DNA of 64,000 bases from assembly GCA_965249725.1 (NCBI GenBank), contig CBDFMQ010000002.1, positions 2,784,001 through 2,848,000 of the forward strand. The letters run 5' to 3'. The notes under the pieces are model-generated. The model had not been told where the DNA came from. It saw only the letters and a program-made list of their open reading frames with translations, and searched no databases. The stretch comes from Longimicrobiales bacterium. GTDB taxonomy: Bacteria > Gemmatimonadota > Gemmatimonadetes > Longimicrobiales > Gaopeijiaceae. Position 1 is the first letter of the stretch. Every line of letters starts with the position of its first letter. Below are positions 36,521-60,776 of this stretch, piece by piece. The position numbers and the translations under genes are program-made.

Positions 36521-36621
36521 ACCTAACGGATCGGCGATTCTGATGCGCGGCTAAGATGCCGACCGCGAGCGAAGCGCGCGAGCCGGATGACTACCGCGAC
36601 TGCAGCCATCGCTTGTTAGGC
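36521..36621 (-). repeat. attC-like site B1 (100-bp family)
   Basis: acctaac...gttaggc; imperfect hairpin with central GCGAAGC; homologous to B2. Confidence 0.82.
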
Positions 36622-36702: not shown

Positions 36703-38928
36703 CTATTGGTCCTTGATTCGGGCTAGCAGCGCCTCAAAAGACGGCTCACCCTGCAGACTACTCAACAGCGCCTGATCCTCTGCCAGGAGCGCATGGTTCG
36801 ACAGCCCTCCGTTCACGCAATGTTCTAGGGACGAGACCGCGTCCTCCACCTCCCCGAGGTAAGCCAGGCAGCCTCCGAGCAGCCAGGAGAACTGGAGATT
36901 CGACCTGGCCCATTCAGCGAGCGACTCGGTGACGTTTTCCAGGGCCTGCTGCTTCTCATCTCTCAGCGCGTGCCGAAGCACGATACCCAATCTGGCGAAG
37001 GGCTCGTCTCCACTCCTGATCTCGTCGAGAACCTCCAAGGCCTCATCCGATCGCTGCCCGTACACTAGTGCCCAGGCAAGTGTGACCCGGGGAGCAAGGT
37101 TGTTCGGATCGTGCTGAAGTGACCGACGGCCAGCAGCCACGGCCTCCTCGTACTGGCCGGTCCAGATATTGGCCAACGGAACCCAAGGCTCCACGTTGAG
37201 CGGGTCGACCTCGCGCAGTCTTTGGGTGCACCATCGCGCCTCCTCCGTTCGCCCCCCCCAGGCAAACAAGATCGACGTGATCAAGAGCGTCTCCGGATCG
37301 TTGGGTTCCAACGAGAGCGCGCGGTCGGCGTACGGAAGGGCCTCGCGAAGCCGGAACGTGTCGTTGTAGATCCAAGCGATGACGAGGTTCGCCTTCGCCG
37401 AGTCGGGGTCTAACTCCAGCGCTCGCCTCGCGGCGGCTTCGGCCCGATCCATGAGGTCGGGGGATGCGTCGCGACCTCCAGTGACGAAGGAATACAAGAC
37501 CAAGGCCTGTCCCAAGCCCGCGAGTAGCAGCGCACTGTCGCCCACGACCTCGAGGCCCTCCTCGAAGTGTCGAATCGCTCGCGCTAGCGATTCGTCCTCC
37601 ACGCGGGCCAGATCGTGCCGACCTCTGAGGTAGAACTCGAGCTCGCGAACGTCAGCGACGGGCCTCCGCTCCATCTCGCGTTCTTCTTCGGGCGTAAGCG
37701 TGAGGACCAGCGCATCGGCGATTTCGCGTGAGACACGCTCCTGCATCCCGAAGACGTCGTCCATCGTTCCCGCAAACTTGTCGCCCCATAACGGAACGTC
37801 GTCTTCGGCATCCACGAGTTGAGCCGTAATCCTGAGGCTGTCACCAGCTTTCCGGACGCTCCCTTCGAGGACATAACGCACTCCCAATTCCCTCCCGATG
37901 CTCTTCAAGTCCTTGTCGGTGCCCTTTAGTTGCATCGCGGAAGTACGGGATATGACGCGCAACGCCTGTAGCCGTGAAAGGTCGCTGATGATTTCTTCCG
38001 TCAGACCATCACTGAAATACTCGTTGTCCGGGTCGGGACTGCTGTTCACAAAGGGTAGTACGACGATGGATTTCTTTTCCGGTGGAGTCGCCTCGTCAGC
38101 GGCCAGTAGGCTGTCCAGAAACGCCCGTGCGCTCGAGAATCGGTCGACCGCGGTCTTGGCCCACGCAACCGTAACGGTCCGATCGACGGATGCCGGTACT
38201 GCGGGCCGGAGTCTTCGGACAGAGGGAACGGGGTCGGTCGCTTGCTTGATTAGCAGGCTCTGAACCGTGCGTCCGGAGTAGGGCGGCTCACCCGCCAACA
38301 TCTCATAAAGCAAACACCCGAGGCTGTAGATGTCCGTCCGGTGATCTACGTCCTGGCCTTCGAACGCTTGCTCGGGGCTCATGTACTCCGGAGTCCCGAG
38401 GGACAACCCGGTTTGAGTGAGCCGGGTTTCAGACGCGGACTCCAGAGCCAACGCGACACCGAAGTCCGAAACGACAGCATGGCCCCCGTCGATCAAGACG
38501 TTCTCTGGCTTCACATCACGGTGTACAATCCCGGCAGCGTGGGCCACTTCGAGGGCTTCAGCCACCTCGCTCACGATCCGCAGCGCATCGTCCAGCGGAA
38601 GCTGCCCGTCGCGGTTCATGATGTCGCGCAACGAACCGCCGTCGGCGAGGGGCATCACGTAGTAGAGAAGCCCGTCGGCTTCACCGGAATCGTAGAGCGG
38701 GAGAATATGTGGGTGGCGCAGGCTCGCGGTGGTCGAGATCTCGCGAAGAAAACGATCCGCTCCAACCGCAACGGCGAGTTCGGGATTCAGCACCTTGATC
38801 GCGACCTTCCGCGCGTGTTTCAGATCTTCCGCCACGAATACGGTGGCCATCCCACCAGCGCCCAGTTCACTCTCGACCACGTAACTCTTCGAGAGCGTTG
38901 AGCTGAGGGTGTGGAAGATGTCGGACAT
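36703..38928 (-). CDS. Ser/Thr protein kinase with TolB-N-like and TPR domains (cassette-borne)
   Basis: GAGGMA, VAIK, HRDVKPEN, DFG, GTPEYMSPE; SIVVLPF..YFSDGLTEEII; TPR-like helices. Confidence 0.93.
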   Translation of the reverse strand: MSDIFHTLSSTLSKSYVVESELGAGGMATVFVAEDLKHARKVAIKVLNPELAVAVGADRFLREISTTASLRHPHILPLYDSGEADGLLYYVMPLADGGSLRDIMNRDGQLPLDDALRIVSEVAEALEVAHAAGIVHRDVKPENVLIDGGHAVVSDFGVALALESASETRLTQTGLSLGTPEYMSPEQAFEGQDVDHRTDIYSLGCLLYEMLAGEPPYSGRTVQSLLIKQATDPVPSVRRLRPAVPASVDRTVTVAWAKTAVDRFSSARAFLDSLLAADEATPPEKKSIVVLPFVNSSPDPDNEYFSDGLTEEIISDLSRLQALRVISRTSAMQLKGTDKDLKSIGRELGVRYVLEGSVRKAGDSLRITAQLVDAEDDVPLWGDKFAGTMDDVFGMQERVSREIADALVLTLTPEEEREMERRPVADVRELEFYLRGRHDLARVEDESLARAIRHFEEGLEVVGDSALLLAGLGQALVLYSFVTGGRDASPDLMDRAEAAARRALELDPDSAKANLVIAWIYNDTFRLREALPYADRALSLEPNDPETLLITSILFAWGGRTEEARWCTQRLREVDPLNVEPWVPLANIWTGQYEEAVAAGRRSLQHDPNNLAPRVTLAWALVYGQRSDEALEVLDEIRSGDEPFARLGIVLRHALRDEKQQALENVTESLAEWARSNLQFSWLLGGCLAYLGEVEDAVSSLEHCVNGGLSNHALLAEDQALLSSLQGEPSFEALLARIKDQ

Positions 38929-39038: not shown

Positions 39039-39138
39039 GCCTAACGGATTGCGATTCTGCTGCGAGATCAAGATGCCGACCGCAAGCGAAGCGCGCGAGC
39101 CGGACGCCTACCGCGTCAGTAGCAATCGCTTGTTAGGG
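39039..39138 (-). repeat. attC-like site B2 (100-bp family)
   Basis: gcctaac...gttaggg; GCGATT-CTGCTG pairs with CAGTAG-C-AATCGC with one bulged base. Confidence 0.85.
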
Positions 39139-40266: not shown

Positions 40267-41274
40267 TTAGAGAGCAATCTCCTGTGTCGTGAGGGAGGGG
40301 GTTGGAGGATTGATCCAGACGGCCTCCGGGAGCGGTTTGGGCTTCGGCTCACCGGAGACGAAGCGGTCGGGATGAGCGGCCCAGGCCTCGCGTAGCACGG
40401 CCTGCCTGCCGGCGATGACCTGATCTGCATTCCCGAAGTGGACCTGTTCGGGGGTCAGCATCGAGATACCACCATGGCGGTGCTCGGCGTTGTACCAGCG
40501 GAAGAACGAGCGACAGAAGGTTTTGGCCTGGCCCTGATCCTCGAACCGTCCAGGAAACGAGGGATGGTACTTCAAGGTCTTGAACTGGGCTTCGGAGAAC
40601 GGATTCTCATCCGACACCTGAGGTCGGCTCAGCGAGCGGGTCACCCCGAGATCGGCGAGGAGCTGAGCCGTGCATTGGCTCGTCATCGGAGCTCCTCGAT
40701 CCGAGTGCAAGGTCAGGACCTGGGGCTGGACGCCATGCTTCAGGCAACTCTGCTGGATCAGGCGCCCGGCCAAGGCCGAGCTCTCCCGATCCGCCACCAT
40801 CCATCCCACGATGTAGCGGCTGAAGATGTCCATGATAACGTAGAGGTAGAAGTAGCTCCACTTCCTCGGCCCCAGCAGCCGTGTGATATCCCAGGACCAG
40901 ACCTGGCCCGGGCCCGTCGCCATCAACTCGGGTTTCTGGTATTCGGGATGACTCCGCTGCGCTCGGCGCTCTCGAACTGGCACTTGGGAGGCCAGAACGC
41001 GATACATCGTACGTTCGCTGCACAGGTAGACGTCTTCGTCGAGCAGGGTCGCCACAACCTCGGCCGGGGACCGGTCCACGAATCGCTCCGAACACAGCGT
41101 GTCGAAGACCTTGTCTCGTTCCTTCTCGCTCAAGGCACGGGCTGGGGTCGGGCGGGGCTGCTGATGCCCGGTCGATGGCCTCCGACGACGATAGAACGTG
41201 GCTCGGGCGACCCTGAGCGCATCGCACGCGGGCTTTACCCCTACGTACGTGGCCAGCGCCTCGGCCGCCTTCAC
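40267..41274 (-). CDS. IS3-family transposase OrfB (DDE)
   Basis: WSWDIT, DIFSRYIVGW, HSDRG, NPFSEAQFKTLK, WYN..HRH. Confidence 0.92.
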   Translation of the reverse strand: MKAAEALATYVGVKPACDALRVARATFYRRRRPSTGHQQPRPTPARALSEKERDKVFDTLCSERFVDRSPAEVVATLLDEDVYLCSERTMYRVLASQVPVRERRAQRSHPEYQKPELMATGPGQVWSWDITRLLGPRKWSYFYLYVIMDIFSRYIVGWMVADRESSALAGRLIQQSCLKHGVQPQVLTLHSDRGAPMTSQCTAQLLADLGVTRSLSRPQVSDENPFSEAQFKTLKYHPSFPGRFEDQGQAKTFCRSFFRWYNAEHRHGGISMLTPEQVHFGNADQVIAGRQAVLREAWAAHPDRFVSGEPKPKPLPEAVWINPPTPSLTTQEIAL

Positions 41275-41495
41275 GAGTTCGTCCCGTCCTTGAGGCTCAA
41301 TCCCAGCAGCCCTGCAACTTTTCCCTGGACGTCGAGGATCAGGCGCGCCTTCTCGAGTTCCTTCTCCAGGCGAGTGTTCTCGCGCTCCAGCTTGCGCACT
41401 TTCCCCTCCAGCGGATTCCGTTCGCTCGGCTTTCGACCTCGTCTCTTCGACAGCGCTCTCAGCGACCCACTCCGCACCGCCTTGCGCCATGTCGA
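41271..41495 (-). pseudogene. IS3 OrfA, N-terminal HTH missing
   Basis: STWRK..KRRGRKP..LERENTRLEKELEKARLILDVQGKV coiled coil. Confidence 0.8.
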
Positions 41496-42211
41496 TCCCG
41501 GCACCTATGCTCCCCCCTTCCGACGGACTTGCGTGGCGCGAGGAGATCCGCGGCTTCGAAGGCAGCGTGGCCTTGGACGTCCTCCTCGAAGACCTGTGGA
41601 CTCGCGGGATTCCCGTCGTTCCAATCCACATGCTGCCGGTGCCTAGCTTCCAGGGACTTGCCGCAGTGGTAGAGGGCAGGCCCGTGGTCGTGTCGGGCTA
41701 CAGGCATGACGAACCGGGACGGGTCGCGTTTCGCATCTCGCATGAGGCTGGTCACATCGCAAAGGGGGACTGCACGTCTGATGCTCCCGTGGTCGACAAG
41801 GATGAAGAGATTCTGTCGGATGACGCGATGGAGAAGCTCGCTGACCAGTATGCAATCCGAGTGCTCGTGGGCGAAGACACGATTCCTGAGCTAGGCCGCA
41901 GTGCTTTCGACAACTTCCGGGACTTGGCTAATCGGGCCGCTGCGGTGGAGCGGGAGACAGGTGCCGACGCCGGAGCGATCATCTTCTCATGGGCACGTAC
42001 CACGGGCGACTATGCGACTGCCACCATGGCGACCAAGGCGCTGTACCTCTCAACCGGAGCCACCCGAAGTCTAAGGGCCACGGAAAGTCTCATTGCGAGG
42101 GTTGCGCCTCGATCAAGGCAGCCGCGGACGGCCAGCCGCGCCTCGGGTCACCCGAGGTGTGGCGACGCATTGGAACCGTCCATCACATCACCGAAGTCAC
42201 GCAGACGTTGA
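41489..42211 (+). pseudogene. ImmA/IrrE-family metallopeptidase, N-terminally truncated
   Basis: RVAFRISHEAGHI (HExxH), EKLADQYA; abuts the broken IS; C-terminus likely shifted. Confidence 0.7.
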
Positions 42212-42784
42212 GGTCTCTACCCGAGTCCTAAGCCGATATCGGACCGCTGACCGGATCTCGGGCACGTCGAGAACCTCGCATACACGGTCCCACACCGCCG
42301 GTCTCGGCTTGCTTCGCACACCTGCCACTGCGTTGTGGTACGCAAGTAGTTCCAGGGCCTCGTCGCGCCAAAGCAGCTCGACCAACGCACGTGGATCTTG
42401 GTCAGGGTTCTCAGCGGCAGGGCGAAACGGATCGAGCGTGAGTGCCTCGACACTGCCGCGAACCAAGAGCACGCCCCACCACCCGGGGACGAGCTGGAGA
42501 GCAGCCTCGATATGCTTTGGACCAACAACAAGGGTGACGCGGTCCAACACACGACTATACGTCGCAGCCTGGGAGGCCAACCGAGTCAACCGGTCCCGAT
42601 TCGACTTGATCTCGTAGCCATGAAGAACACCGCTCACTGTCGCCAAGTCGATCCGAGCCTGGCCTTGGCAGAGCCCCAGTTCCTCGATCAATAGCGTGTC
42701 CGGGTGTGCCAACTCCTGTTGCTCCAGATACGTCCGAAGCGCCGGTCGCACCTCCGCATCTCGGATCACGTTGTGAGATGTCAA
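42197..42784 (-). CDS. sce7726-family protein (PD-(D/E)xK-like)
   Basis: IEELGL..RIDLA..LHGYEIKSNRDRLTRL..Q..YSRVLD..WWG. Confidence 0.75.
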   Translation of the reverse strand: MTSHNVIRDAEVRPALRTYLEQQELAHPDTLLIEELGLCQGQARIDLATVSGVLHGYEIKSNRDRLTRLASQAATYSRVLDRVTLVVGPKHIEAALQLVPGWWGVLLVRGSVEALTLDPFRPAAENPDQDPRALVELLWRDEALELLAYHNAVAGVRSKPRPAVWDRVCEVLDVPEIRSAVRYRLRTRVETSTSA

Positions 42785-43650: not shown

Positions 43651-43814
43651 GTCCGACACGGGACCAGACACGACCCGGATTCCCGCTATTTGATGCGGTT
43701 TTCCCGCTATTTCAGTACGGCGGAACCAGATATGGTCTAACGGCAAGAACGGCAGATCGTGCAGTCCTAGTTGAACTTAGGCGATTTCTTGCCGTGAATC
43801 ACATCATCCGTACT

Positions 43815-43835
43815 ACGCCTGATAAGCGTGAGGTC
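43815..43835 (+). other. tRNA-Ile(GAT) anticodon-arm fragment, likely att scar
   Basis: acgcctgataagcgtgaggtc matches the typical tRNA-Ile anticodon arm and variable loop; no acceptor, D or T arms. Confidence 0.65.
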
Positions 43836-43907
43836 CCCGTCTCGTCTTCCCGCGCGGTTTACGCAGGAGCGATCTGATTGGCTCGCCCGATGACCCGAAG
43901 TCATGTC

Positions 43908-44063
43908 ATATAACGTTCAGGGCCTCCGAACCGGCCCACGTTTCAGTGCCTTACATCAAGGACAGATCCACAGCCGCTTCCGCTGACCGAAGCCCATTTG
44001 ATCGAGGGCCGGTTGGGCCGAGGGCCGCCTACAGCGGCCCGAGCCGGAGGCCCCGTGTTACAC
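43908..44063 (-). repeat. att site A1 (154-bp family)
   Basis: TAACGTTCAGGGCCTCCGAACCGGCCC, 69-nt variable loop, conserved 47-nt arm, GTTACAC. Confidence 0.9.
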
Positions 44064-44179
44064 GGCGTTTCCCCACGCGCCTCTTCAATCCGCTCCTAAT
44101 CTGGTGAGACAATCGGGAATGCGACTGTATTTGGCACTGGCGTGAACTAGCGGATTGCAATTCGGCCGCTGCACCTTCC

Positions 44180-44977
44180 TTATCCCGGCACCAACGCCAG
44201 GCACGCCCCCACCGGATCCTGAACCACCGCACATTCGTACTCCCCATCGTGCCCCCGTGTGGCCTTGATGATCTTACCCCCTCCCTCCCCTACGCGACGG
44301 AGACTTTCGGCGAGGTCGCCAACGGGGAGGAAAATCATCCAGATAGGCGGCAAACCTAGGTTCACGCCGCGCGCATGGCAGACTCCCGCCGCCGGGTTTC
44401 CGTCATCGCCGAACAAGTGGTAGTCGGCATAGGGCCCGCTTGCGTCCTCCATCTCGACGTCCTGCGCGGACCAGTGAACGACCTGTCGGTAGAAGTCACG
44501 AGTTGCCGAGGCGTCAGAGACCGTCAGGTCGAGCCAGGAGATGCGTCCCACACGCGCCGCAGCGTCGCGCGATGCGGCGCCGTCAGTTGGGAGGATCGCC
44601 TCCGCAGAAACGACGGGGATGATCCCGAACGCCGCCCCATTCGGATCGAGCAGCACCGCCCACTGACTCTTTCCAGCGTCGCCTTTGGCATGCATGAGCT
44701 CACTCCCGCCCAGATCCAGCGCTCGCCCCACACTGGCTGCGACATCGGCGACCTGAATGTGCGGCATCCATTGGAGCGGGAGGTGAGCATATTCCGCGCT
44801 GCGCGCGCCCAAGCCGATGATCGGCATGCCCAGGTTGTTCATCAGATCCTCGCGCCAAAGCGGATTCTCGCCCGTGCTGAGTACACGTGAGTAGAAGCGC
44901 ACTTCACGTTCGTGTTCGGGAACGGCGATGTCGGCGCTGAGGATTCCGCCGACGCGTGGGACAAGGGGGTCACTCAT
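44180..44977 (-). CDS. VOC/glyoxalase family protein, two domains (cassette)
   Basis: WMPHIQVADV..DPNGAAFG; ISWLDLTVSD..RDFY..DPVGA. Confidence 0.85.
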   Translation of the reverse strand: MSDPLVPRVGGILSADIAVPEHEREVRFYSRVLSTGENPLWREDLMNNLGMPIIGLGARSAEYAHLPLQWMPHIQVADVAASVGRALDLGGSELMHAKGDAGKSQWAVLLDPNGAAFGIIPVVSAEAILPTDGAASRDAAARVGRISWLDLTVSDASATRDFYRQVVHWSAQDVEMEDASGPYADYHLFGDDGNPAAGVCHARGVNLGLPPIWMIFLPVGDLAESLRRVGEGGGKIIKATRGHDGEYECAVVQDPVGACLALVPG

Positions 44978-45316
44978 GGTTCGCGTCCTGGTTGACATCA
45001 TGTTGGGTCAAGGTTCATTGGCCAGATATGGACTTCAATGGGCATCGCGGCAACGATTCTCGAGGCAGGGGCCCGAGACCTTCTCGAAGAATGGTACCGG
45101 GTGAGGCCACAGTCCGTGCGGGTGATCCGGAGGCGGCCTAGCTAGGAATTGGCCTGTACCAATCCGGGTCTGATACTGTGCTCATCTCTGCGATAATCCC
45201 GCCCCATGGCGCAGACCGCACACCCGGACACGGTTCTGCGAACCTGCAAAGGGCCCCGTTGTTCCGCATTTCGGACGACCTACATGAGAAATGTCGATCT
45301 CATCTACGACAATGAC

Positions 45317-45470
45317 GTGTAACGTTCAGGGCCTCCGAACCGGCCCACATTCGTGGGTTACTTCTGCTCTCTTCCACGTACCACTTCCGTAACTCCACGT
45401 CCTCCCGGTCGTGGCCGGTTGGGTCGAGGGCCGCCTACAGCGGCCCGAGCCGGAGGCCCATTTGTTATCA
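45317..45470 (-). repeat. att site A2
   Basis: Same 27-nt and 47-nt arms; 66-nt loop; ends GTTATCA. Confidence 0.9.
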
Positions 45471-45484
45471 GGCGTTGCCGTGTT

Positions 45485-45817
45485 TCACGACAGCACTAGG
45501 TAGGCGGCCACTTCGTCGTCCTCGAACTCGTAAATCCGAGCCGAGTTGGACCGCAGGATCCTCTCTGTTTCTTGGACGCTACAATTGCCGCGGCGTATCC
45601 AGATGACCTTCGGAGGGGGGCCGAAGACGAAGCTCATTTGCTGGAAATCGTTGTCCTTCGACACGATTACCAAGTTCGCCTCCCTCGCATGGTCCCAGAT
45701 CTCTGAATCCGACGCTCTTGTCATCCCCAAATCCCGAACGTGTACAGAATCAGGGAAGATGTCGGCGAGGGCGTGAGCTAAGCGTGGGGCCAGGTTCTCA
45801 TCGAAAAGGAGCTTCAC
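45485..45817 (-). CDS. DUF5615 PIN-like toxin
   Basis: KLLFDENL, SDSEIW, IVSKDNDF, PPKVIWIR.GN. Confidence 0.88.
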   Translation of the reverse strand: MKLLFDENLAPRLAHALADIFPDSVHVRDLGMTRASDSEIWDHAREANLVIVSKDNDFQQMSFVFGPPPKVIWIRRGNCSVQETERILRSNSARIYEFEDDEVAAYLVLS

Positions 45818-45821
45818 CGCC

Positions 45822-46049
45822 TCACGCCGGAGGCAGCGCGATCAGGCGACGCTCCCGTTCTGCAGCGAACGCCAGGGCCGCCTTGATGTCCTCCCTCTCC
45901 AGATCCGGCAACTCCGCCAGGATCTCGTCCTCCGTCATTCCGGAGGCTAGGTAGTCGAGCACATCGGACACCGTGATCCGCATCCCGCGGATACACGGCT
46001 TCCCACTTCTCTTGCCTGACTCGATCGTGATTCGGTCTCGGTAGTCCAT
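45822..46049 (-). CDS. DUF433 antitoxin
   Basis: GKPCIRGMRITV..GMTEDEIL..DLEREDI.AAL.FAA. Confidence 0.9.
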   Translation of the reverse strand: MDYRDRITIESGKRSGKPCIRGMRITVSDVLDYLASGMTEDEILAELPDLEREDIKAALAFAAERERRLIALPPA

Positions 46050-46217
46050 GCCTCAAATACCCCCAACCTCTTCGGAAGGGTCAAGCTTGCATTGCCAACA
46101 CTGACTCGGCACACGATCGCCTGCAAGATCCTTCTGCTCGAATCGCTTCACCTGTGCGAGCCCAGAACTCGATCGGTCGCCCTCGCCCTGGCCGTTTTCT
46201 CTGCCGGAGCAATGTCC

Positions 46218-46372
46218 TGATAACGTTCTAGGGTGCCGACGTTGCCCGTCGCATGCGCCGCACGAACCCGCCGGCACCAGATGCACCAATACCGCTCACG
46301 CGCGAGCCACGTCAAAGGGCAATGTACAGCGTAGCGAACGAAGTGAGCGCAGCCGGCACCCGGTTGTTATCG
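46218..46372 (-). repeat. att site A3 (divergent sequence, same fold and length)
   Basis: TAACGTTC; GGGTGCCG/CGGCACCC; ACGTTGCCC/GGGCAATGT; side hairpin; GTTATCG. Confidence 0.82.
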
Positions 46373-46439
46373 GAAGTGACCGTGCTGGCCACCCTTGGTC
46401 GTGCTGAGCGTAGGCGCCGACCCTATCCCTTGCTAGCAC

Positions 46440-46455
46440 ATAGCAGTACTGCTAT
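46440..46455. promoter_or_regulatory. Palindromic operator upstream of a TA operon
   Basis: atagcagtactgctat, perfect 16-bp palindrome 8 bp before the toxin ATG. Confidence 0.65.
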
Positions 46456-46463
46456 TCTCCATC

Positions 46464-46836
46464 ATGTCCTCGCCGGCCCGGAAACCGCTCCACTTCGTGG
46501 CCTCAAGCATCAAGGATCTCCGCGGTCTGCCGGAGGAGATCAAGGATGTGTTCGGGGCCGCCTTGCCTTGACGCTCAATACGGGGACCACCCCGCAGGAG
46601 CGAAACCATTCGGCGAGGGAGTGCCACGGGAGGTCATGAAACTGGTAGAGGACTACGACGGCAATACGTACCGCGCCGCCTACACGGTCGCGCTGAAGAG
46701 CGCGGTCTACGTACTCCATGTCTTCACCAAGAAGTCGAAGCGGGGAATCGGCACGCCACGTCCGGACAAGGATGCGATTCGGTCAAGACTCCAGGCGGCG
46801 AGGGAACACCACGCGAGGTACTACGAGAAGAGTTAA
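46464..46836 (+). pseudogene. RelE/Gp49-like toxin, frameshifted at about 46566
   Basis: KPLHFVASSIKDLRGLP.. then GNTYRAAY..VYVLHVFTKKS; one extra C in ttgccttgac. Confidence 0.8.
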
Positions 46837-46861
46837 AGGCAGTTCTAGAGGAGAAGATGCA

Positions 46862-47200
46862 ATGAGCGACGATCTGAAGATTCACGACAGCACGGGCAAC
46901 GTCTTCGCCGACATCGGCGCCCGCGACGCCGAGGAGCTGCTCGCAAAGGCGGAACTCGCGCGTCTCATCCGACACGAGCTCACACGGCGCGGACTCACGC
47001 AGGCCGTGGCTGCAGACCTCCTCGGCATGAAGCAGCCTGATGTCTCGGACCTGGTACGCGGGAAGCTGTCCCGCTTCAGCCTATCGCGGCTTGAGAGACT
47101 GCTGAACGCTCTCGACCTTGAGATTCGAATCCAGGTCGGGCCGAAGCCTGCCGACAAGGCTCAGGCCGGCATCACTGTTGAGCTCGTCGAGTCATTCTGA
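46862..47200 (+). CDS. XRE/HTH_37 antitoxin
   Basis: STGNVFADIG, LTQ..AA.LLG..QPDVSDL.RGK..FS. Confidence 0.88.
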   Translation: MSDDLKIHDSTGNVFADIGARDAEELLAKAELARLIRHELTRRGLTQAVAADLLGMKQPDVSDLVRGKLSRFSLSRLERLLNALDLEIRIQVGPKPADKAQAGITVELVESF

Positions 47201-47239
47201 CCTGCGGCCTCGGCCCTCCACATAGTGCACGGTCATTTC

Positions 47240-47393
47240 CGATAACGTTCAGGGCCTCCGAACCGGCCCTCACTTCGGTTCTTGGTTCTGCTCCAACTCA
47301 GCTATCAATCCCGTCGACCAATCGCCCCGGTCGCGGGCCGGTTGGGTCGAGGGCCGCCTATAGCGGCCCGAGCCGGAGACCCCTCTGTTAGAC
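47240..47393 (-). repeat. att site A4
   Basis: Conserved arms; 66-nt loop; ends GTTAGAC. Confidence 0.9.
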
Positions 47394-47412
47394 GATGCCG
47401 TTCCACACTCGT

Positions 47413-47718
47413 CTACTTCGTCGTCGTTCCTGCTTCAGCGTGTAGCTTGATCCCAAGAGCCTTGACCACCTTCAGGATTGTGTCAAAGCCCGGGCTACGC
47501 TCGCCGGACAACGCCTTGTACAGGCTCTCTCGAGACAGTCCAGCGTCTCTGGCCACCTGAGTCATTCCCTTGGCCCGGGCGATGTCTCCAAGGGCCTTGG
47601 CCACAAATGCGGCGTCACCATCCGCCTCCTCGAGGCACGCCTCTAGGTACGCAGCCATTTCTTCTGGCGTCCTGAGATGTTCAGCAACGTCGTATCGGGT
47701 CGTCTGAGTCGTTCCCAT
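47413..47718 (-). CDS. Addiction-module antidote (HTH antitoxin)
   Basis: YDVAEHL..ALGDIARAKGMTQVA..GLSRESLYKALS. Confidence 0.9.
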   Translation of the reverse strand: MGTTQTTRYDVAEHLRTPEEMAAYLEACLEEADGDAAFVAKALGDIARAKGMTQVARDAGLSRESLYKALSGERSPGFDTILKVVKALGIKLHAEAGTTTK

Positions 47719-47724
47719 GCTCTT

Positions 47725-48021
47725 TTACTCCGATAGATCGCGAGCGAGGCGTAGCGCAGCCTTGATGTCCTTGGTCTGCGAACTCTTATCCCCTCCCGCA
47801 AGCAAGATGATCAGCTCCCGCCCATACCGTTTGAAATAGACTCGGTATCCGGGTCCGTAATCGATTCGTAGTTCCGAGACACCCTCACCAACGGGCCTGA
47901 CATCCCCTGGATTGCCGACAGCAAGCCGCTCAATCCGGACCTGAACGCGGGCTCTCGCCCGCATATCTCGGAGGTCGTCTAGCCACCGCGCGAAGAACTC
48001 AGTCTTACGGATCTCGATCAT
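47725..48021 (-). CDS. Addiction-module killer (RelE/ParE superfamily toxin)
   Basis: GNPGDV.PVGEGVSELRIDYGPGYRVY, LLAGGDKSSQ. Confidence 0.9.
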   Translation of the reverse strand: MIEIRKTEFFARWLDDLRDMRARARVQVRIERLAVGNPGDVRPVGEGVSELRIDYGPGYRVYFKRYGRELIILLAGGDKSSQTKDIKAALRLARDLSE

Positions 48022-48026
48022 GTCCA

Positions 48027-48055
48027 AGTGTAGCCACGTGGCTACAGTCGGTCAA
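48027..48055 (-). promoter_or_regulatory. Sigma70-type promoter overlapped by an 18-bp palindrome, probably leaderless
   Basis: TTGACC-17 bp-TACACT on the minus strand; tgtagccacgtggctaca at 48029-48046; ATG 5 nt after the -10. Confidence 0.7.
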
Positions 48056-48090
48056 TCCAATAGCTGCGGTCGCGGTCGGTGTCGATTGCC

Positions 48091-48372
48091 TCACCAGTAC
48101 CACCCGGCCTCACGCGGATGAACATACGACCTCGCCTCACACTGCCCACGTTTGATCGCAGCTTGCGAACGCCGACGCTCCCGCCGGTTCAAGCGATTCC
48201 TGTACCACCGCGGAGGCACACACAGCCACTCGCATCCCCGCGAGCTAGCCTTCCATCCCTTGATCCGGCCGCCCGGCAGGATCTTCCACCTTCTCTGAGC
48301 CATTTCGCCCTCCCTGTAGAGTGCTACAGGAAGGGCGCCCTTTCCTTCAGAATCATACGTGCCATCTGTCAA
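48091..48372 (-). CDS. Small basic Trp-rich hypothetical protein
   Basis: PPRWYRNRLNRRERRR..GWYW; GGAGG upstream; start uncertain. Confidence 0.45.
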   Translation of the reverse strand: MTDGTYDSEGKGALPVALYREGEMAQRRWKILPGGRIKGWKASSRGCEWLCVPPRWYRNRLNRRERRRSQAAIKRGQCEARSYVHPREAGWYW

Positions 48373-48495
48373 ACCTCCTTTACCAGCGTTCTTGCCCCGT
48401 CGACAACATCAAGCGCACGCCTGCCGCCTACGTGCCGCAATGCGCTCCTCCAGCCAGGTCGCGTAGCTCTCCGCAGATCTTGTTTCAAGGCCAGG

Positions 48496-48519
48496 TAGTT
48501 ATTACCGTTGTTATAACTA
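48496..48519. promoter_or_regulatory. AT-rich inverted repeat upstream of the AbrB-Doc operon
   Basis: tagttat-N10-ataacta. Confidence 0.5.
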
Positions 48520-48539
48520 TCACAAACGAGGACTCGCTC

Positions 48540-48767
48540 ATGCCCAAGCAAACCACGATCCGCGCTATCGGCAACTCGGCCGGTACGACCATCCCAAAGC
48601 CTATGCTCGAGCGTTATCACTTGGGCGAAGGCGACGCCGTCCATTTGGTTGAGACCGAGGAAGGCATCCTGATCACTCCCTTCGATCCAGACTTCGATGA
48701 GGCCATGGAGATCTACGCAGAGGGTGCCAAGCGCTATCGCAATGCCATGCGTGAACTCGCCAAGTGA
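48540..48767 (+). CDS. AbrB/MazE-type antitoxin
   Basis: IRAIGNSAGTTIPK..GD.V.L..GILITP; stop overlaps the Doc start. Confidence 0.85.
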   Translation: MPKQTTIRAIGNSAGTTIPKPMLERYHLGEGDAVHLVETEEGILITPFDPDFDEAMEIYAEGAKRYRNAMRELAK

Positions 48768-49153
48768 CCGAGCCACGTTGGCTTTCTCAAGTACAAGTCC
48801 TCTCCATCCATTCTGATCAGATCCAAGCCCACGGCGGATCCCTTGGGCTCCGGGACAGGGGACTCCTGGAGTCCGCCCTCGAACGCCCTCGCAATCGCTT
48901 CCATTACGATCCCGAGGCCGACCTCCCTTCTCTCGCGGCCGCGTACGGGTTTGGACTTTCAAGCAATCATCCCTTCGTGGACGGCAACAAGCGCATCGCC
49001 TTTCAAGCCATGTATCTCTTCCTCGGTTTGAACGGCTTCCGCATTGATGCCTCTGAAGAAGAGGTCGCCACTACTATCCTTTCTCTGGCGCGCGGTGACC
49101 TCGACGAACCCACCCTGGCTGACTGGCTCCGTCACAACATCTCTCCTCGCTGA
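48764..49153 (+). CDS. Death-on-curing (Doc/Fic) toxin
   Basis: GLRDRGLLESAL.RP, NHPFVDGNKR. Confidence 0.92.
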   Translation: MTEPRWLSQVQVLSIHSDQIQAHGGSLGLRDRGLLESALERPRNRFHYDPEADLPSLAAAYGFGLSSNHPFVDGNKRIAFQAMYLFLGLNGFRIDASEEEVATTILSLARGDLDEPTLADWLRHNISPR

Positions 49154-49179
49154 CTCAGCCCCTTCATTCGAGGCATTGC

Positions 49180-49333
49180 GGCTAACGTTCAGGGCCTCCG
49201 AACCGGCCCCACCTTCCGTTCTCTACTCTACGGCAGATCCGCTGCCGCCTTCGTTGACCGAAGACCTCCCGGTCGCGGCCGGTTGGGTCGAGGGCCGCTT
49301 ACAGCGGCCCGAGTCGGAGGCCCCGTGTTATGT
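49180..49333 (-). repeat. att site A5
   Basis: Conserved arms; 67-nt loop; ends GTTATGT. Confidence 0.9.
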
Positions 49334-49422
49334 GACGTCGTGACCACGCAAGACCGTTCCCTTCTCTGCCAACGGCGACACGAACGCGCGCGGTCCGCGC
49401 GAGCACCACACCCGCACCCCTC

Positions 49423-49881
49423 CTATCGTGAAACCTCAAGCCACTGGTCCATGAACTCCGCAAAGTCTCCTGGCATGTCTGGACGGGACGCCACCCATGC
49501 CTCCCGAGCATATGGGAGCCGCAGAGTCTCCGCGAGCAAGAGGTCCAAGGCGGTCGGAGGAAGGACGTCATTGTCTACCTGACGCCACACGAGTTCCGCT
49601 TGACGGAAGAGGGCCTCCAGCCTAAAGGCGACAAGCATTCGCTCCTCAGTGCTGAAGTCGTCACGGAGCGCTCCGCTACGTATCCGACTGTACAAGGCAA
49701 GCCACTCTCGGTCTCCCGCCATCGTCGTGACCAAGTCGGTCGTGAAGATCGCGACGTCGCGGTATGCCTCGGCCCGGGCTACTGCCGTGTTCTGTCGTAT
49801 CTCTAGCCCCACGAAGACTAGAGAAAAAGTCACACCGAGTATGCCGATCAATTCCTTCAGAGCCGTGCGTTTCGCCATCAT
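49423..49881 (-). CDS. Hypothetical protein with N-terminal TM helix (cassette)
   Basis: ELIGILGVTFSLVFVGLEIRQNT; sole long ORF of its cassette; GGAG RBS. Confidence 0.7.
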   Translation of the reverse strand: MMAKRTALKELIGILGVTFSLVFVGLEIRQNTAVARAEAYRDVAIFTTDLVTTMAGDREWLALYSRIRSGALRDDFSTEERMLVAFRLEALFRQAELVWRQVDNDVLPPTALDLLLAETLRLPYAREAWVASRPDMPGDFAEFMDQWLEVSR

Positions 49882-50029
49882 GGATCACTCCCGACAAGAT
49901 CGGCCAGAGTCGATGAGCCACGTTCCTTGCGTCGACCCCGTAAGTTGAACCGCGCCATCCATGCACGCCGACTCCATCTTCTTATCCCTTGCCCTTCCAT
50001 TCCACAACTATGCTTGCCTGAGCGATTGC

Positions 50030-50182
50030 ACATAACGTTCAGGGCCTCCGAACCGGCCCCACATTCGTTTCTTGCTTCTGCTCCAATCTTCTATCACACA
50101 GTTCGACCGAAGTCCAACCGGTTGCGGCCGGTTGGGTCGAGGGCCGCCTTCAGCGGCCCGAGCCGGAGGCCCAGTGTTATAT
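50030..50182 (-). repeat. att site A6
   Basis: Conserved arms; 66-nt loop; ends GTTATAT. Confidence 0.9.
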
Positions 50183-50241
50183 GATGTGACGCTGGTCAAC
50201 TAAGTACTGCTGTTGATACTTCGGCGGGACGGGTCCTAGAG

Positions 50242-52911
50242 TCAGTTGGGCACCCGCTCCTTCAACTCCTCGAAGAAGTTGTCGACGAGAATCAATTGGC
50301 TGTCGAGATCAAGCGATCTCATCAGCATCAGGCGTTGGTCGTCCGGGCTGATGTCATAACCCGCGCTGCCGTTTCCGATCTGGTAGTCGGTCGAAGAGAA
50401 TAGGACTCGCTGCTGTCCTACAGAAAATGATGGATCGACGTTGATTTCGGCGACCATCTGTGTCCCTCCGACCGACTCACCCTGGTAGAACAACTCTCTG
50501 CCGCTGTGTGCCCACACGGACTCATCGCCGTAGGTAGTGGAGACCTGCCACAGGCCCGCGTCGACGTCGGGGAATGGACGCACGTACACCTGAGCCCGAT
50601 CCTCGGGGTTCGCTCTCCAGGTATACGAGAGCCAGCGCCCGTCCGGGGAAAGCGAGATCTCGGTCGCCCGCACTCCATCCGTGACCAACGGAGTCGCTAG
50701 ACTGTCCAATTCTGGCCGTATCGCGAAGATGTCCGCGTTGGCAACCAGGCCGTCAGATTCGACGAATACGAGCCACGTGCCATCGGGCGTGTACGCGAAT
50801 TCCTGAATGGGCCGCTCCCTGTCCAGGACGAGTTCAGCCGAGCCACTCCCGTCTGCTCTCTTTCTCCACAGATCGCGTTGCCCGGCCCGATTCGACACGA
50901 ACGTGACGAACTCCGCATCCCTCGACCACCGAGGCCTGAGATTCTCAGTCCCCTCGAATGTGAGTCGGGACAGCGGGCCTGAGTCCAATTGCTTGACATA
51001 CAAGTCCGCAGTCCCGTCAGCGTCGATGATCGACGCGACGAGCCTCGTGCCGCCCGGGGAAATGGCAAGACTGACCATGAAGGCGTCGGTGGGAAACGCC
51101 CAACCGGGATCAACTTCTTGGACAGTCCCGTCTCGGTCGACCCAGACAGGGGTGTGGAGGCCTCCGCCCACACCCGCCCGGTACACAAGCCTGTCCGACT
51201 CTGACACGTCGAAGTACGGTAGTCCTTGGCTTTGCAGCACTCCCTCTACGACTGGTTCCACAGCACCCATGAGTTCCAGGTTCGTCACGTCGAAGAGTGC
51301 CGCCAAGAGAGTCCCCTCGGTCGGGTTCACGAAGAGCAGATGTCCGGTGGAGACGTAGCGCGGGGCCTGGCCCGGCGTGAGGTCTTTGGTTTCGCCGGTC
51401 TCCAGGTCCAAGGCTTGGATTCGCTGGCCAGAAGCAGACCCCCGCACCTGATACAGGAGGCTACTGCTACCCGGCAGCACCTGCGCGAAGCTGTGGGAAA
51501 CGTCTCCGGCTGCGGTATCCACTCGGGTAACGACCTCGGACGGCCCACCGGTCGCTGGTACGCGGCTCAGTCCTCGCGCCGAGTCTCTGTAGTAGACCCA
51601 ATCACCCTCCCGACTCCACGTTGGGCAGCAGCTGGCAGATTCGGTGAGGATGCGCACTGCCCCCCCATCAAGGGGGACGACCCTAACCGAACCGCCGGAA
51701 GTATGGAAAGCCACCTCCCTATCATCCGGAGAAATAGTCGGGGCGTATGCATTCCCTGCATTCCGGATCGGAGTGGCGCTCAACGCGTCCCACCGCCTCA
51801 TCATCAGTGCGAGTTGCCCCTCCTCATCCACGCCCTTGTACACCATGAATGATCCATCGGCCGAAAGGTCTAGGCTTCCAAACGTGGACGCAAAGGACTG
51901 GCCTACTCCCATCAGCACTGAGACGCGTGTGACCGACTCTGGAGGCTCGGGACGGAGAAGTGACCAGCCCTGACTGAGCGCGAGCACCGCCGCCAGAGAG
52001 GCGAAAGCCATTGTCGACCGCTTCCACGGACCTGCATCTGAAGCGCCGACTCCGACGACCGCCTCGCCATATCGGAAGTGTTCATCTCCCAGCGCCGTCG
52101 CGAACTCCTGAGACGACTTGAACCGATCCGCAGGGAGCTTCTCCAACGCCTTCCGCAGCGCAGCGTCAACATTCGCCGGGATCGAAGCCCGCTTCTCGGT
52201 GGCCGAGATTGGTCGGGAGGAAATGATCTGGCCCAAGACGGCCTGAGCGGTTTTCCCCACGTATGGCGGGTCGCCCGTCAGCATCTCATATAGGACGGAG
52301 CCCAAGGCGTAGGTGTCCGTCGAAGCACCCACGAACTGATCGCCCGTTGCCTGCTCGGGGCTCATATAGAACGGGGTCCCCAGACTCAGGCCGGTCTCCG
52401 TCAGACGCCCTCCACCAGCCGCTCCAACAGCCAGCGCGATCCCAAAGTCGGCGATTAGTGGTCGCCCTTCGTGGAGCAAGATGTTGGCTGGCTTGATGTC
52501 TCGGTGGATGATCTTGTGGCGGTGAGCGTAGTCGAGCGCCTCTGCTAGGTCCGTGGTAATCTTCACCGCTTCGTCCACGGGGAGTTGATGCTCACGGTCC
52601 AGCCTGTCCCGTAACGACTCTCCCTCGATGTAGGGCATCACGTAGTAGAGGAAGCTGTCGGCTTCGCCCGAGTCGTGGAGCGGCAGGATGTTCGGGTGGG
52701 TCAGGTTGGCCGTAGTTTCGATCTCGGCCAGGAATCGCTCAGCGCCTACCACCGCTGCCAACTCGGGCTTCAGGACCTTCAAGGCCACGTTGCGGTTGTG
52801 CTTCAGGTCCTTGGCGAGATAGACCGTAGCCATCCCACCCTCGCCGAGCTCACGCTCGATGACGTACCGATTCTCAAGGGCTCCGTTCAGGCGAGAGACT
52901 GAATCGGACAC
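50242..52911 (-). CDS. Membrane Ser/Thr kinase with TolB/PD40-like beta-propeller (first cassette)
   Basis: GEGGMA, VALK, HRDIKPAN, DFG; TM helix; SPDG repeats. Confidence 0.93.
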   Translation of the reverse strand: MSDSVSRLNGALENRYVIERELGEGGMATVYLAKDLKHNRNVALKVLKPELAAVVGAERFLAEIETTANLTHPNILPLHDSGEADSFLYYVMPYIEGESLRDRLDREHQLPVDEAVKITTDLAEALDYAHRHKIIHRDIKPANILLHEGRPLIADFGIALAVGAAGGGRLTETGLSLGTPFYMSPEQATGDQFVGASTDTYALGSVLYEMLTGDPPYVGKTAQAVLGQIISSRPISATEKRASIPANVDAALRKALEKLPADRFKSSQEFATALGDEHFRYGEAVVGVGASDAGPWKRSTMAFASLAAVLALSQGWSLLRPEPPESVTRVSVLMGVGQSFASTFGSLDLSADGSFMVYKGVDEEGQLALMMRRWDALSATPIRNAGNAYAPTISPDDREVAFHTSGGSVRVVPLDGGAVRILTESASCCPTWSREGDWVYYRDSARGLSRVPATGGPSEVVTRVDTAAGDVSHSFAQVLPGSSSLLYQVRGSASGQRIQALDLETGETKDLTPGQAPRYVSTGHLLFVNPTEGTLLAALFDVTNLELMGAVEPVVEGVLQSQGLPYFDVSESDRLVYRAGVGGGLHTPVWVDRDGTVQEVDPGWAFPTDAFMVSLAISPGGTRLVASIIDADGTADLYVKQLDSGPLSRLTFEGTENLRPRWSRDAEFVTFVSNRAGQRDLWRKRADGSGSAELVLDRERPIQEFAYTPDGTWLVFVESDGLVANADIFAIRPELDSLATPLVTDGVRATEISLSPDGRWLSYTWRANPEDRAQVYVRPFPDVDAGLWQVSTTYGDESVWAHSGRELFYQGESVGGTQMVAEINVDPSFSVGQQRVLFSSTDYQIGNGSAGYDISPDDQRLMLMRSLDLDSQLILVDNFFEELKERVPN

Positions 52912-53065
52912 AGGCGTACTCCGGCACTATCAGGCGGCGGGCAGCATCGCGTGGGGGGCGTGGATAACGTGAGGGGCAGGAGCGGGCGGGTCAACAAGAG
53001 GCTTGGCCCCGGGCCCTGACTGCCGTACGCCCTGGGCGATGCTGGTTCACAAGTGAACCGCCCGA

Positions 53066-53216
53066 AGTCATATCATATAACGTTTGTATCTCCGACGTAC
53101 TACAAGTCCCCGTTTGGGATTCGGACCCGAGACGCGCGGGTAATGATCCGGTAGCCGGAGATTACCGAACTAGTTCGCGTAAGGGCCTTATAGTTCGTGG
53201 TCAGATCTTGACGAAC
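53066..53216 (-). other. Candidate attI/primary recombination site region
   Basis: TAAC at 53078-53081 whose left flank complements the A6 right flank; no closing GTTA; palindromes at 53166-53177 and 53193-53216. Confidence 0.65.
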
Positions 53217-53426
53217 AACTACACCGGGCCGGCCTGCGCGATGAGATCGCTGGGGGGCAGTGGGCCGATCCGGGCTCTCCGGCGGACATCCCTACTCCGC
53301 AGGATCGTGCCAATATGCTGATCGTGGCTCCAGGACGCCAACCAGCCCCTCGTGGCGTCGTCTAACGCTTCGGTCCAGGACCGATTCCGCCATGGCTCCG
53401 CCCGTCGTGTCTTGCGACCGTGGACC

Positions 53427-53951
53427 ATGGACTCCGACTCACCCCGAAACACGCCGTCCAGCCCGCAGCCGACCCAGCTACCGTCTGGGAGTGACATCGA
53501 GGTGACTGTCCGGGCGGGCGCAATCGTGCTACGCGGGCCCTACCGGGAGGATGTTGTCTCGCTGATCCGCTCCCTCCCCGGACGGCGCTGGGACCGCCGC
53601 GAACGCGTTTGGCGCCTACCGGATACATCACTGGTCAGAGCCGCTCTATGGGATAAACTGGGTATCCGTCTCGACCCGGAGCCCCGCGCCGACCGAAAGA
53701 CCCACTTGCGGTCCGACGAGCGGGAGGGCTTATCACTCCGCTTCGATGAAGAGATGCGGCTCCGCGGCTACGCTCCGCGCACTCGACGCGCGTATGGAGG
53801 CCACATCCGCCGCCTTCTCTCCGATGTCGGTGACGCGGAGGACCTGCCGGAAGCACTGCGCGAGCACGTACTCCGCCGGGTCGCCACCGACAAGGTATCT
53901 CGCTCCTACCACAACCAACTGATCAGCGCGCTTCGCTCTCACGAGGTCTGA
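53427..53951 (+). pseudogene. Tyrosine recombinase N-terminal fragment (extra N-terminal domain plus SAM_4-like domain); catalytic domain lost
   Basis: EEMRLRGYAPRTRRAY..HIRR and VSRSYHNQLISALR; breaks off at about 53937. Confidence 0.8.
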
Positions 53952-60693: not shown

Positions 60694-60776
60694 GGCCAAC
60701 TCCCGAATCAGGCGGTGCCTAACATCCTATCCGCAGGTCGTGAGGCGCAAGCACGACCGGGGGGTAGGTCGCCCCG

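Follow-up and report, generated by a model that had tools for sequence, protein, structure and literature searches.

A cassette array in a Longimicrobiales bacterium with end sites that lack extrahelical bases and share a covariation-supported three-way fold

A 64,000-nt stretch of the genome of a Longimicrobiales bacterium (hereafter the window; coordinates are positions in it unless a contig or locus is named) carries six attC-like repeats, sites A1 to A6, which are the cassette-end sites that bound six cassettes of an integron-like array. As inferred from covariation, the A sites share a three-way fold without an extrahelical base. Beside the array lies the remnant of a tyrosine recombinase gene whose intact relatives lack the I2 insertion of the integron integrase IntI. 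We consider it probable that such I2-less SAM_4 enzymes recombine the folded bottom strand of these sites, with strand choice set mainly by a lopsided spacer and with the branch of the junction as a clade-specific helper. An earlier reading of this DNA, made from sequence only, had proposed both the junction and a role of its branch in strand choice: the structural claim stands, and the claim that the branch sets the strand is unproven.

All six sites that the sequence-only reading had reported between 43908 and 50182 are found where it placed them (Table 1). Following the integron convention for naming strands, as given in the part of PMC5027507 available to us, the + strand of the A sites is the bottom strand. 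Read along this strand, the 5' half of each site consists of TAAC, a 5-6 nt spacer, stem 1, stem 2, the variable loop and the returning arm of stem 2. In the 3' half, a short linker leads to a hairpin with GA or GNA on its flanks; the returning arm of stem 1 follows, then 3-4 nt of spacer and GTTA. Stem 1, described earlier as fully paired, is a perfect helix of 8-9 bp in five of the six sites, but A4 has a mismatch (no bulge). Stem 2 (AACCGGCC/GGCCGGTT) is complete in all five sites of the main type, and its A3 version contains one G.T pair. The branch GGGCCGC-N5-GCGGCCC is as first described, and GA flanks it on either side. The variable loop spans 67-70 nt between the 8-bp arms of stem 2 (A3 is similar) rather than the 66-69 nt reported before, and its pyrimidine richness holds for four sites (0.66-0.70) but not for A1 (0.54) or A3 (0.51). 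The absence of an extrahelical base was borne out, since a bulge-tolerant detector places none in the six sites, neither at attC position 16 nor at 23/24 (0/6). The alternative of a plain hairpin with a canonical bulge was rejected on the same result. Folded singly, A1, A2 and A4-A6 outfold shuffled sequences on both strands (z -2.5 to -4.7). A3, by contrast, does not (z about +0.3), nor is its predicted minimum-energy fold the junction, and its topology rests on alignment and covariation because single-sequence folding misses the junction. At gathering thresholds, Rfam has no match within the window.

The covariation analysis drew on 119 unique sites from 25 loci, collected by a detector that required at least seven pairs in stem 1 and a longer R' spacer and imposed neither stem 2 nor the branch. 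Five sites were dropped as other types (two from L212, one from L215, L049:6485 and L055:1991), leaving 114 from 18 genomes, and 43 long non-redundant sites from 15 genomes were aligned with plain MAFFT. From this alignment RNAalifold, unaided, predicts the three-way junction, with two-sided (compensatory) changes in 17 of 21 pairs. For the structure named above, pairing holds in 94.8% of cells, and two-sided changes are seen in 20 of 28 pairs (stem 1, 8/9; stem 2, 6/8; branch with its closing pair, 6/7). None of 500 shuffles reaches this level, slid controls pair in 31-45% of cells, and when 10,585 column pairs are ranked by corrected mutual information, each of the first eight is a pair of the proposed structure. 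TAAC and GTTA are invariant in all 43 sites, and compensated variants of stem 1 also occur among sites retrieved with a sequence-only profile (L053, L054, L055 and L058). Across the 114 sites, a branch segment of at least 15 nt is kept in 113, stems 1 and 2 follow each other on the 5' arm with zero unpaired bases in 106, and a G(N)A x G(N)A motif is closed by a Watson-Crick pair in 105. Covariation on the expanded alignment thus bears out the junction of the sequence-only reading.

The sites are linked in a chain. The bases past the GTTA of each site match the start of its own cassette, as seen at the next site up. Each of the window's six links holds, one of the seven core bases being mismatched in one link, and the last links A6 to an attI-like site, whose 3' flank equals the R'' flank of A6 at 14/15 nt. 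Among relatives, the flanks match at 4/4 bases in 48 of 65 adjacent site pairs less than 1.6 kb apart, versus 6% under random pairing. The cargo comprises four toxin-antitoxin pairs in three cassettes, a glyoxalase, a protein of no assigned family and a likely kinase cassette. All six sites share one orientation while two of the toxin-antitoxin pairs run counter to the array; a promoter upstream that drives their expression would therefore not fully explain why the sites run one way. A scan of 52850-53500 for a Pc promoter with the sigma-70 consensus found none, though this consensus may not suit the phylum. Sites like that at 53075-53095 lie 73-767 nt behind nine intact or frameshifted genes of relatives and in front of two more, and they would act as attI.

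To relate site type to enzyme type, a single bulge-tolerant detector was applied to IntI loci and I2-less loci alike. In IntI loci (sites in 6 of 21), all 26 sites have a bulge at attC positions 15-17, 18 of them at position 16. I2-less loci (sites in 14 of 22) yielded 110 sites, of which 93 are bulge-less, 16 bulged only in the spacer and a single one bulged at position 16. The segregation also holds within G000, the genome of the window, and G088, each of which has both systems. Three families coexist in G000: bulged 94-nt sites behind its own IntI, which has the insertion (C3:1028959-1030107), family A and family C. Family C is seen in an array at C3:2281722-2288162 (L017, L227) with sites of 136-143 nt and GNA-rich branches on the R' arm; it lies behind a second, frameshifted I2-less recombinase (C3:2292762-2293400), whose match to the remnant starts at the SAM domain. 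In the wider family several arrays consist of plain hairpins, often with a stem mismatch, and sites of the Bacteroidota type are branchless. Two metagenome arrays, L117 and L192, hold near-identical unbranched mini-sites of 48 nt alongside branched ones. Bulged sites, called family B, also occur in the window: two of them, at 36524-36618 and 39042-39135, carry extrahelical bases (positions 16 and 23), enclose a cassette with a Ser/Thr kinase-TPR gene (36703-38928) and chain with each other and not with A1. The family B motif occurs at 25 sites genome-wide, and at C3:2314286-2318481 two family C sites flank a family B site that runs the opposite way.

The truncated recombinase gene lies 350 bp beyond the attI-like site and its product is 75% identical to three intact 385-aa proteins (P0001-P0003). 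Named homologues assign the host to Gemmatimonadota, Longimicrobiales. In intact relatives the catalytic residues are conserved, and 59-60 residues separate two catalytic motifs, versus 100 in IntI, with an alignment gap at I2. These enzymes score 191-205 bits against the IntI model TIGR02249, under its cut-off of 265, and NF040815 is the first or second NCBIfam match of the four proteins scanned (191-196 bits, cut-off 220). The top Foldseek match of the enzyme is VchIntIA (2a3v); its best sequence match in the PDB is archaeal XerA. A quick tree, from which 4 of 48 loci with short frames were left out, places IntI in one clade (support 100) that groups with the I2-less enzymes apart from XerC/D, the mutual order of the two being unsettled. 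The sequence-only reading had supposed a cognate recombinase other than IntI, and relatives without the I2 insertion do adjoin such sites, which points to one. I2-less enzymes with arrays occur in many Gemmatimonadota, with relatives in other phyla including Bacteroidota, and the remnant itself is matched in 67 of 301 genomes of the order. The usual layout in the relatives examined is an array downstream, co-oriented and starting at an attI-like GTTA; the divergent layout of the window belongs to the P0001 subclade (G000, G002, G156 and G315), and no array lies upstream of an intact recombinase in 20 loci. Because the enzyme of the window is truncated, its array is probably frozen.

The N-terminal domain of the enzyme weakly resembles HARP. 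Pfam HARP matches 13 of 47 homologues at E up to 0.01, a weak score below the cut-off; the HARP structure 4o66 ranks first in Foldseek at a weak E of 0.12 and matches by profile at E 0.012. A wide structural search gave HARP a Z of 3.6 (root-mean-square deviation 2.9, 53 aligned residues), with unrelated folds above it, and found no fold with Z of at least 5. The available portion of PMC9368896 makes no statement on what HARP domains bind. A tie between this domain and the branch was rejected as unsupported, as unbranched sites adjoin enzymes whose match reaches the N-terminal domain.

Several features distinguish the bottom strand. In the helix cells of the 43-site alignment, G.T pairs outnumber A.C pairs by 28 to 5 on this strand, and a G.A apposition closes the branch in 42 of 43 sites; sheared tandem G.A pairing is known in DNA. 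The branch region contains a C-GNA-G motif in 96 of 114 bottom strands, against 34 top strands, and GNA triloops are described as a stable loop motif of DNA in the accessible text of PMC3201870. The R' arm exceeds the R'' arm in all 108 measurable sites: from the R box to a conserved CG there are 12-13 nt on the R'' arm, a spacing shared with most attI-like sites, and 14-16 nt on the R' arm. The branch leaves the R'' arm 12-13 nt from the R'' core, on the same arm as canonical extrahelical bases, and splits a conserved YCG motif, which in attI-like sites likewise stands 12-13 nt ahead of GTTA. For IntI1, the excerpt of PMC5027507 at hand describes extrahelical bases as important and not the sole determinant, as two sites stripped of them recombine. 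That the branch sets strand choice was not established: family C, in the same genome, has its branch on the opposite arm, and in the wider family several arrays show hairpins without a branch or combine branched sites with plain ones of 48 nt. Because family C and branchless arrays exist while the R' arm is longer in every type seen, we rank the lopsided spacer first, as the more constant asymmetry, and the branch as a helper.

From these features we propose how recombination might proceed. On the bottom strand, stems 1 and 2 would stack as one duplex, since no bases intervene on the 5' arm of nearly all sites. The stacked duplex would mimic the double-stranded attI-like site, whose spacing the R'' arm matches, and the R' arm would have to loop out 2-3 nt. 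The monomer on the R box would then cut within the AAC of R', where a long-spacer arm is offered by the bottom strand only. The branch, with its G.A clamp and in many sites a C-GNA-G cap, both on the bottom strand only, would interrupt the conserved L motif on the strand that the L monomer would cut; it could thus aid folding and hinder the second exchange, with resolution left to replication as in integrons.

A number of points weigh against this account. In none of the six sites does the bottom strand have the lower nearest-neighbour DNA energy (the top strand is equal or lower, by up to 3 kcal/mol), so that folding both strands gave no bottom-strand preference, and the ensemble probability of the full junction is 0.003-0.36 on the bottom strand. 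The nearest-neighbour model has no term for sheared G.A pairs. Single-sequence folding was in any case discarded as proof of strand, as it does not discriminate between strands and fails for A3. The long loop is pyrimidine-rich on the bottom strand, whereas canonical attC sites show a purine skew according to the part of PMC5027507 consulted. The pairing of stem 1 is partly by construction, since at least seven pairs was a selection criterion, and kinship of the sequences inflates covariation. A longer R' arm, present in 108 of 108 sites, was likewise a detector criterion and is shared by IntI-linked sites of the phylum. The window's own recombinase gene is cut short, and the three genomes of the genus yielded no intact enzyme of its subclade. 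In the wider family arrays stand behind only 12 of 73 loci with at least 2.5 kb downstream (13 including one IntI control), counts that are lower bounds, as the chain-filtered detector missed the IntI and family C arrays of G000 itself and found few arrays outside Gemmatimonadota. Finally, no clean excision joint was among the 15 joints listed out of 50, and contigs cannot show absence.

The rival closest to the sequence-only reading holds that the branch is the strand determinant that replaces the extrahelical bases, possibly read by the HARP-like domain. Its near-universal presence in the clade (113 of 114 sites), the near-invariant G.A clamp, its position on the R'' arm of the bottom strand, where PMC5027507 in its available part places the canonical extrahelical bases, and the HARP likeness in three weak tests (Pfam, Foldseek and profile) would all suit such a role. 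Yet in family C the branch sits on the R' arm with cassette orientation unchanged, L133, L186, L260 and L276 have no junction branch although their match reaches the N-terminal domain, L117 and L192 mix plain with branched sites, and the wide structural search ranks HARP beneath unrelated folds; we therefore regard this rival as unlikely. Similarly doubtful is a bolder form of our own proposal, in which this would be a second, I2-independent route of single-strand cassette recombination whose HARP-like domain reads the G.A-clamped junction instead of a contact between I2 and extrahelical bases, and whose enzyme family preserves the pre-I2 ancestor of IntI.

Two further rivals dispense with bottom-strand recombination by the I2-less enzyme. 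The exchange could be an ordinary double-stranded, Xer-like one at the R'-L' arm, the fold serving cassette genesis or an RNA signal. The enzyme scores equally against archaeal XerA and IntI, it lacks the domain to which the single-strand chemistry has been credited (PMC7790495), and the attI-like site resembles the L'-R' arm in sequence. However, the spacing of attI equals that of the R'' arm (12-13 nt) and not of the R' arm (14-16 nt), which fits only a folded substrate; the R'' flanks track the cassette's own start; and GNA triloops are a DNA motif (PMC3201870, available text); Rfam has no match. We hold this rival to be very improbable. Least probable of all appears to be that the A sites form an unusual class of attC on which the true IntI of the host acts in trans, with the I2-less gene a bystander. 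G000 does encode an insertion-bearing IntI, A1 and the bulged family B sites 4.8 kb away share one orientation, and IntI1 recombines two attC sites devoid of extrahelical bases, as reported in the seen part of PMC5027507. Against it, sites segregate by enzyme (0/26 bulge-less by IntI, 1/110 with canonical bulges by I2-less enzymes), they do so even within G000 and G088, the B and A chains of the window are unlinked, and attI-like sites directly adjoin I2-less genes. On balance, bottom-strand recombination by the I2-less enzyme, with the spacer as main asymmetry, is the account we favour.

Table 1. Sites, cassettes and recombinase remnant of the A array
Feature	Position	Strand	Remarks
Site A1, attC-like	43908..44063	+	+ strand is the bottom strand
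Site A1, parts			TAAC 43911-14; stem 1 43920-28/44045-53; stem 2 43929-36/44007-14; branch 44019-43; GTTA 44057-60
Site A2, attC-like three-way junction	45317..45470	+	
Site A3, divergent sequence	46218..46372	+	topology as in the others by alignment; branch with GNA/GA motifs 46330-46353
Site A4	47240..47393	+	single C.A mismatch in stem 1
Site A5	49180..49333	+	
Site A6	50030..50182	+	
Cassette 1, Ser/Thr kinase with PD40 repeats (50242-52911)	50036..53080	-	cassette status likely
Cassette 2, 152-aa protein without Pfam match (49423-49881)	49186..50035	-	
Cassette 3, two toxin-antitoxin pairs	47246..49185	-	Gp49-like/HI1420 (47413-48027, -); MazE-like/Fic-Doc (48540-49153, +)
Cassette 4, Gp49-like toxin and HTH_37 antitoxin	46224..47245	-	genes on + strand (46546-47200)
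Cassette 5, DUF433 and DUF5615 (PIN-like) pair (45485-46049)	45323..46223	-	
Cassette 6, two-domain glyoxalase/VOC protein (44180-45001)	43914..45322	-	
attI-like site (inferred)	53075..53095	-	YCG motif 12 nt before GTTA; no hairpin partner
3'-truncated tyrosine recombinase	53427..53951	+	HARP-like domain and SAM_4, without catalytic domain; divergent from array

The array is covered in pieces by contigs of four runs from four studies, one of which may be the source sample, with 0-3 differing letters per listed piece, and contigs of those runs cross the truncation point of the recombinase unchanged. Single-base indels against two or three runs at 53223, 54030 and 54168, none inside the recombinase frame, are possibly assembly errors or strain differences. 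A non-coding repeat at 43670-43840 has three further copies in the genome (77-85% identical) and is very deep in the runs.

Some observations concern the ends and cargo of the array. Just past the last site, A1, positions 43894-43917 repeat 53061-53084 at the attI-like crossover at 23/24 nt, after which the similarity stops; it could represent a former right half of attI or a leftover from a cassette duplication. An identical 31-nt flank follows an A site at 50170-50200, at C3:1938009-1938039 of G000 and at L051:12055-12025, with different genes beyond, which suggests one ancestral cassette end that was later rearranged. At C2:265352-266308 (L015), G000 has another attI-like site, accompanied by a single cassette and one half of an A site; a toxin-antitoxin-like pair replaces the missing half, and no recombinase match lies nearby. 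The Gp49-like bacterial toxin frame at 46465-46836 apparently lacks its natural start and looks frameshifted, and one run contig agrees with the window. Among the large Ser/Thr kinases at 50242-52911, 36703-38928 and 58045-60699, members appear as cassette cargo in both site families, and a paralogue that lies outside the array shows about 70% identity over a part; the phylum may owe some of its kinase expansion to cassettes. Between the B and A arrays, 40267-42784 holds an IS3-type transposase followed by two proteins, one with a weak likeness to CapP/PD-Lambda-2 B and one matching PADLOC 'cll' (E 1e-21).

The I2 helix and extrahelical bases are held to enable integrons to recombine folded single strands (PMC7790495). 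Arrays that follow integron logic without either make it testable whether I2 is needed for oriented cassette capture, and turn the form of the ancestor into a testable question; if our proposal is true, there is a second way to build an integron. A genome with both systems and separate site types provides a natural control for orthogonality, and an orthogonal structure-specific recombinase would be useful for engineering. Tools that rely on models of IntI and attC would likely overlook or misassign such arrays, and gene-capture platforms may therefore be undercounted.

The systems compared were integrons (IntI1 with attCaadA7, VchIntIA of Vibrio cholerae with its VCR sites, PDB 2a3v, and co-oriented integrons), two recombinase groups and the rAID-1 arrays of Bacteroidales. 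Like integrons, the array has R''/R' cores of AAC-GTT, a cassette chain, a single site orientation, toxin-antitoxin cassettes and an attI-like site adjoining a SAM_4 tyrosine recombinase with 2a3v as top Foldseek match. Unlike them, it has no I2 insertion and no extrahelical base at 16 or 23/24, its hairpin branches off 12-13 nt from the R'' core, in the L region and not as a terminal structure, its enzyme has an extra HARP-like N-terminal domain, and its sites reach 164 nt. We do not class the system as an integron because it lacks two defining traits, I2 and extrahelical bases. Smyshlyaev et al. 2021 (PMC8138268), in the sections available, describe an 'integron-like' subgroup of tyrosine recombinases in some of whose members the insertion is 'not fully conserved', call the insertion essential for integron function, and describe no cassette arrays or sites for members without it. 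Archaeal XerA and NF040815 ('site-specific tyrosine recombinase/integron integrase') are alike to the enzyme in sequence, but XerA works on dif sites in double-stranded form, and the gene studied here stands at the head of cassette arrays whose sites fold. Beyond that remark and rAID-1, the literature covered, which included few subscription papers, holds no account of these sites or of an I2-less integron mechanism. In rAID-1, as the consulted text of Ross et al. (bioRxiv 10.1101/471110) describes it, a recombinase of the XerD family precedes co-directional arrays with intergenic repeats 'reminiscent of integrons', and the definition demands more than 44% identity to B. fragilis BF9343_RS08045, at least two co-directional downstream genes and a G+C content of at most 41%; the text, so far as available, gives no fold or mechanism for the repeats. 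The array of the window differs in lying upstream and divergent (many relatives do have co-directional downstream genes), in a G+C content of about 60% and in having no recognised immunity genes. Integrons are very rare in Bacteroidetes and Firmicutes according to the accessible part of PMC9024848, and related enzymes with arrays occur in Bacteroidota; rAID-1 is the nearest published layout.

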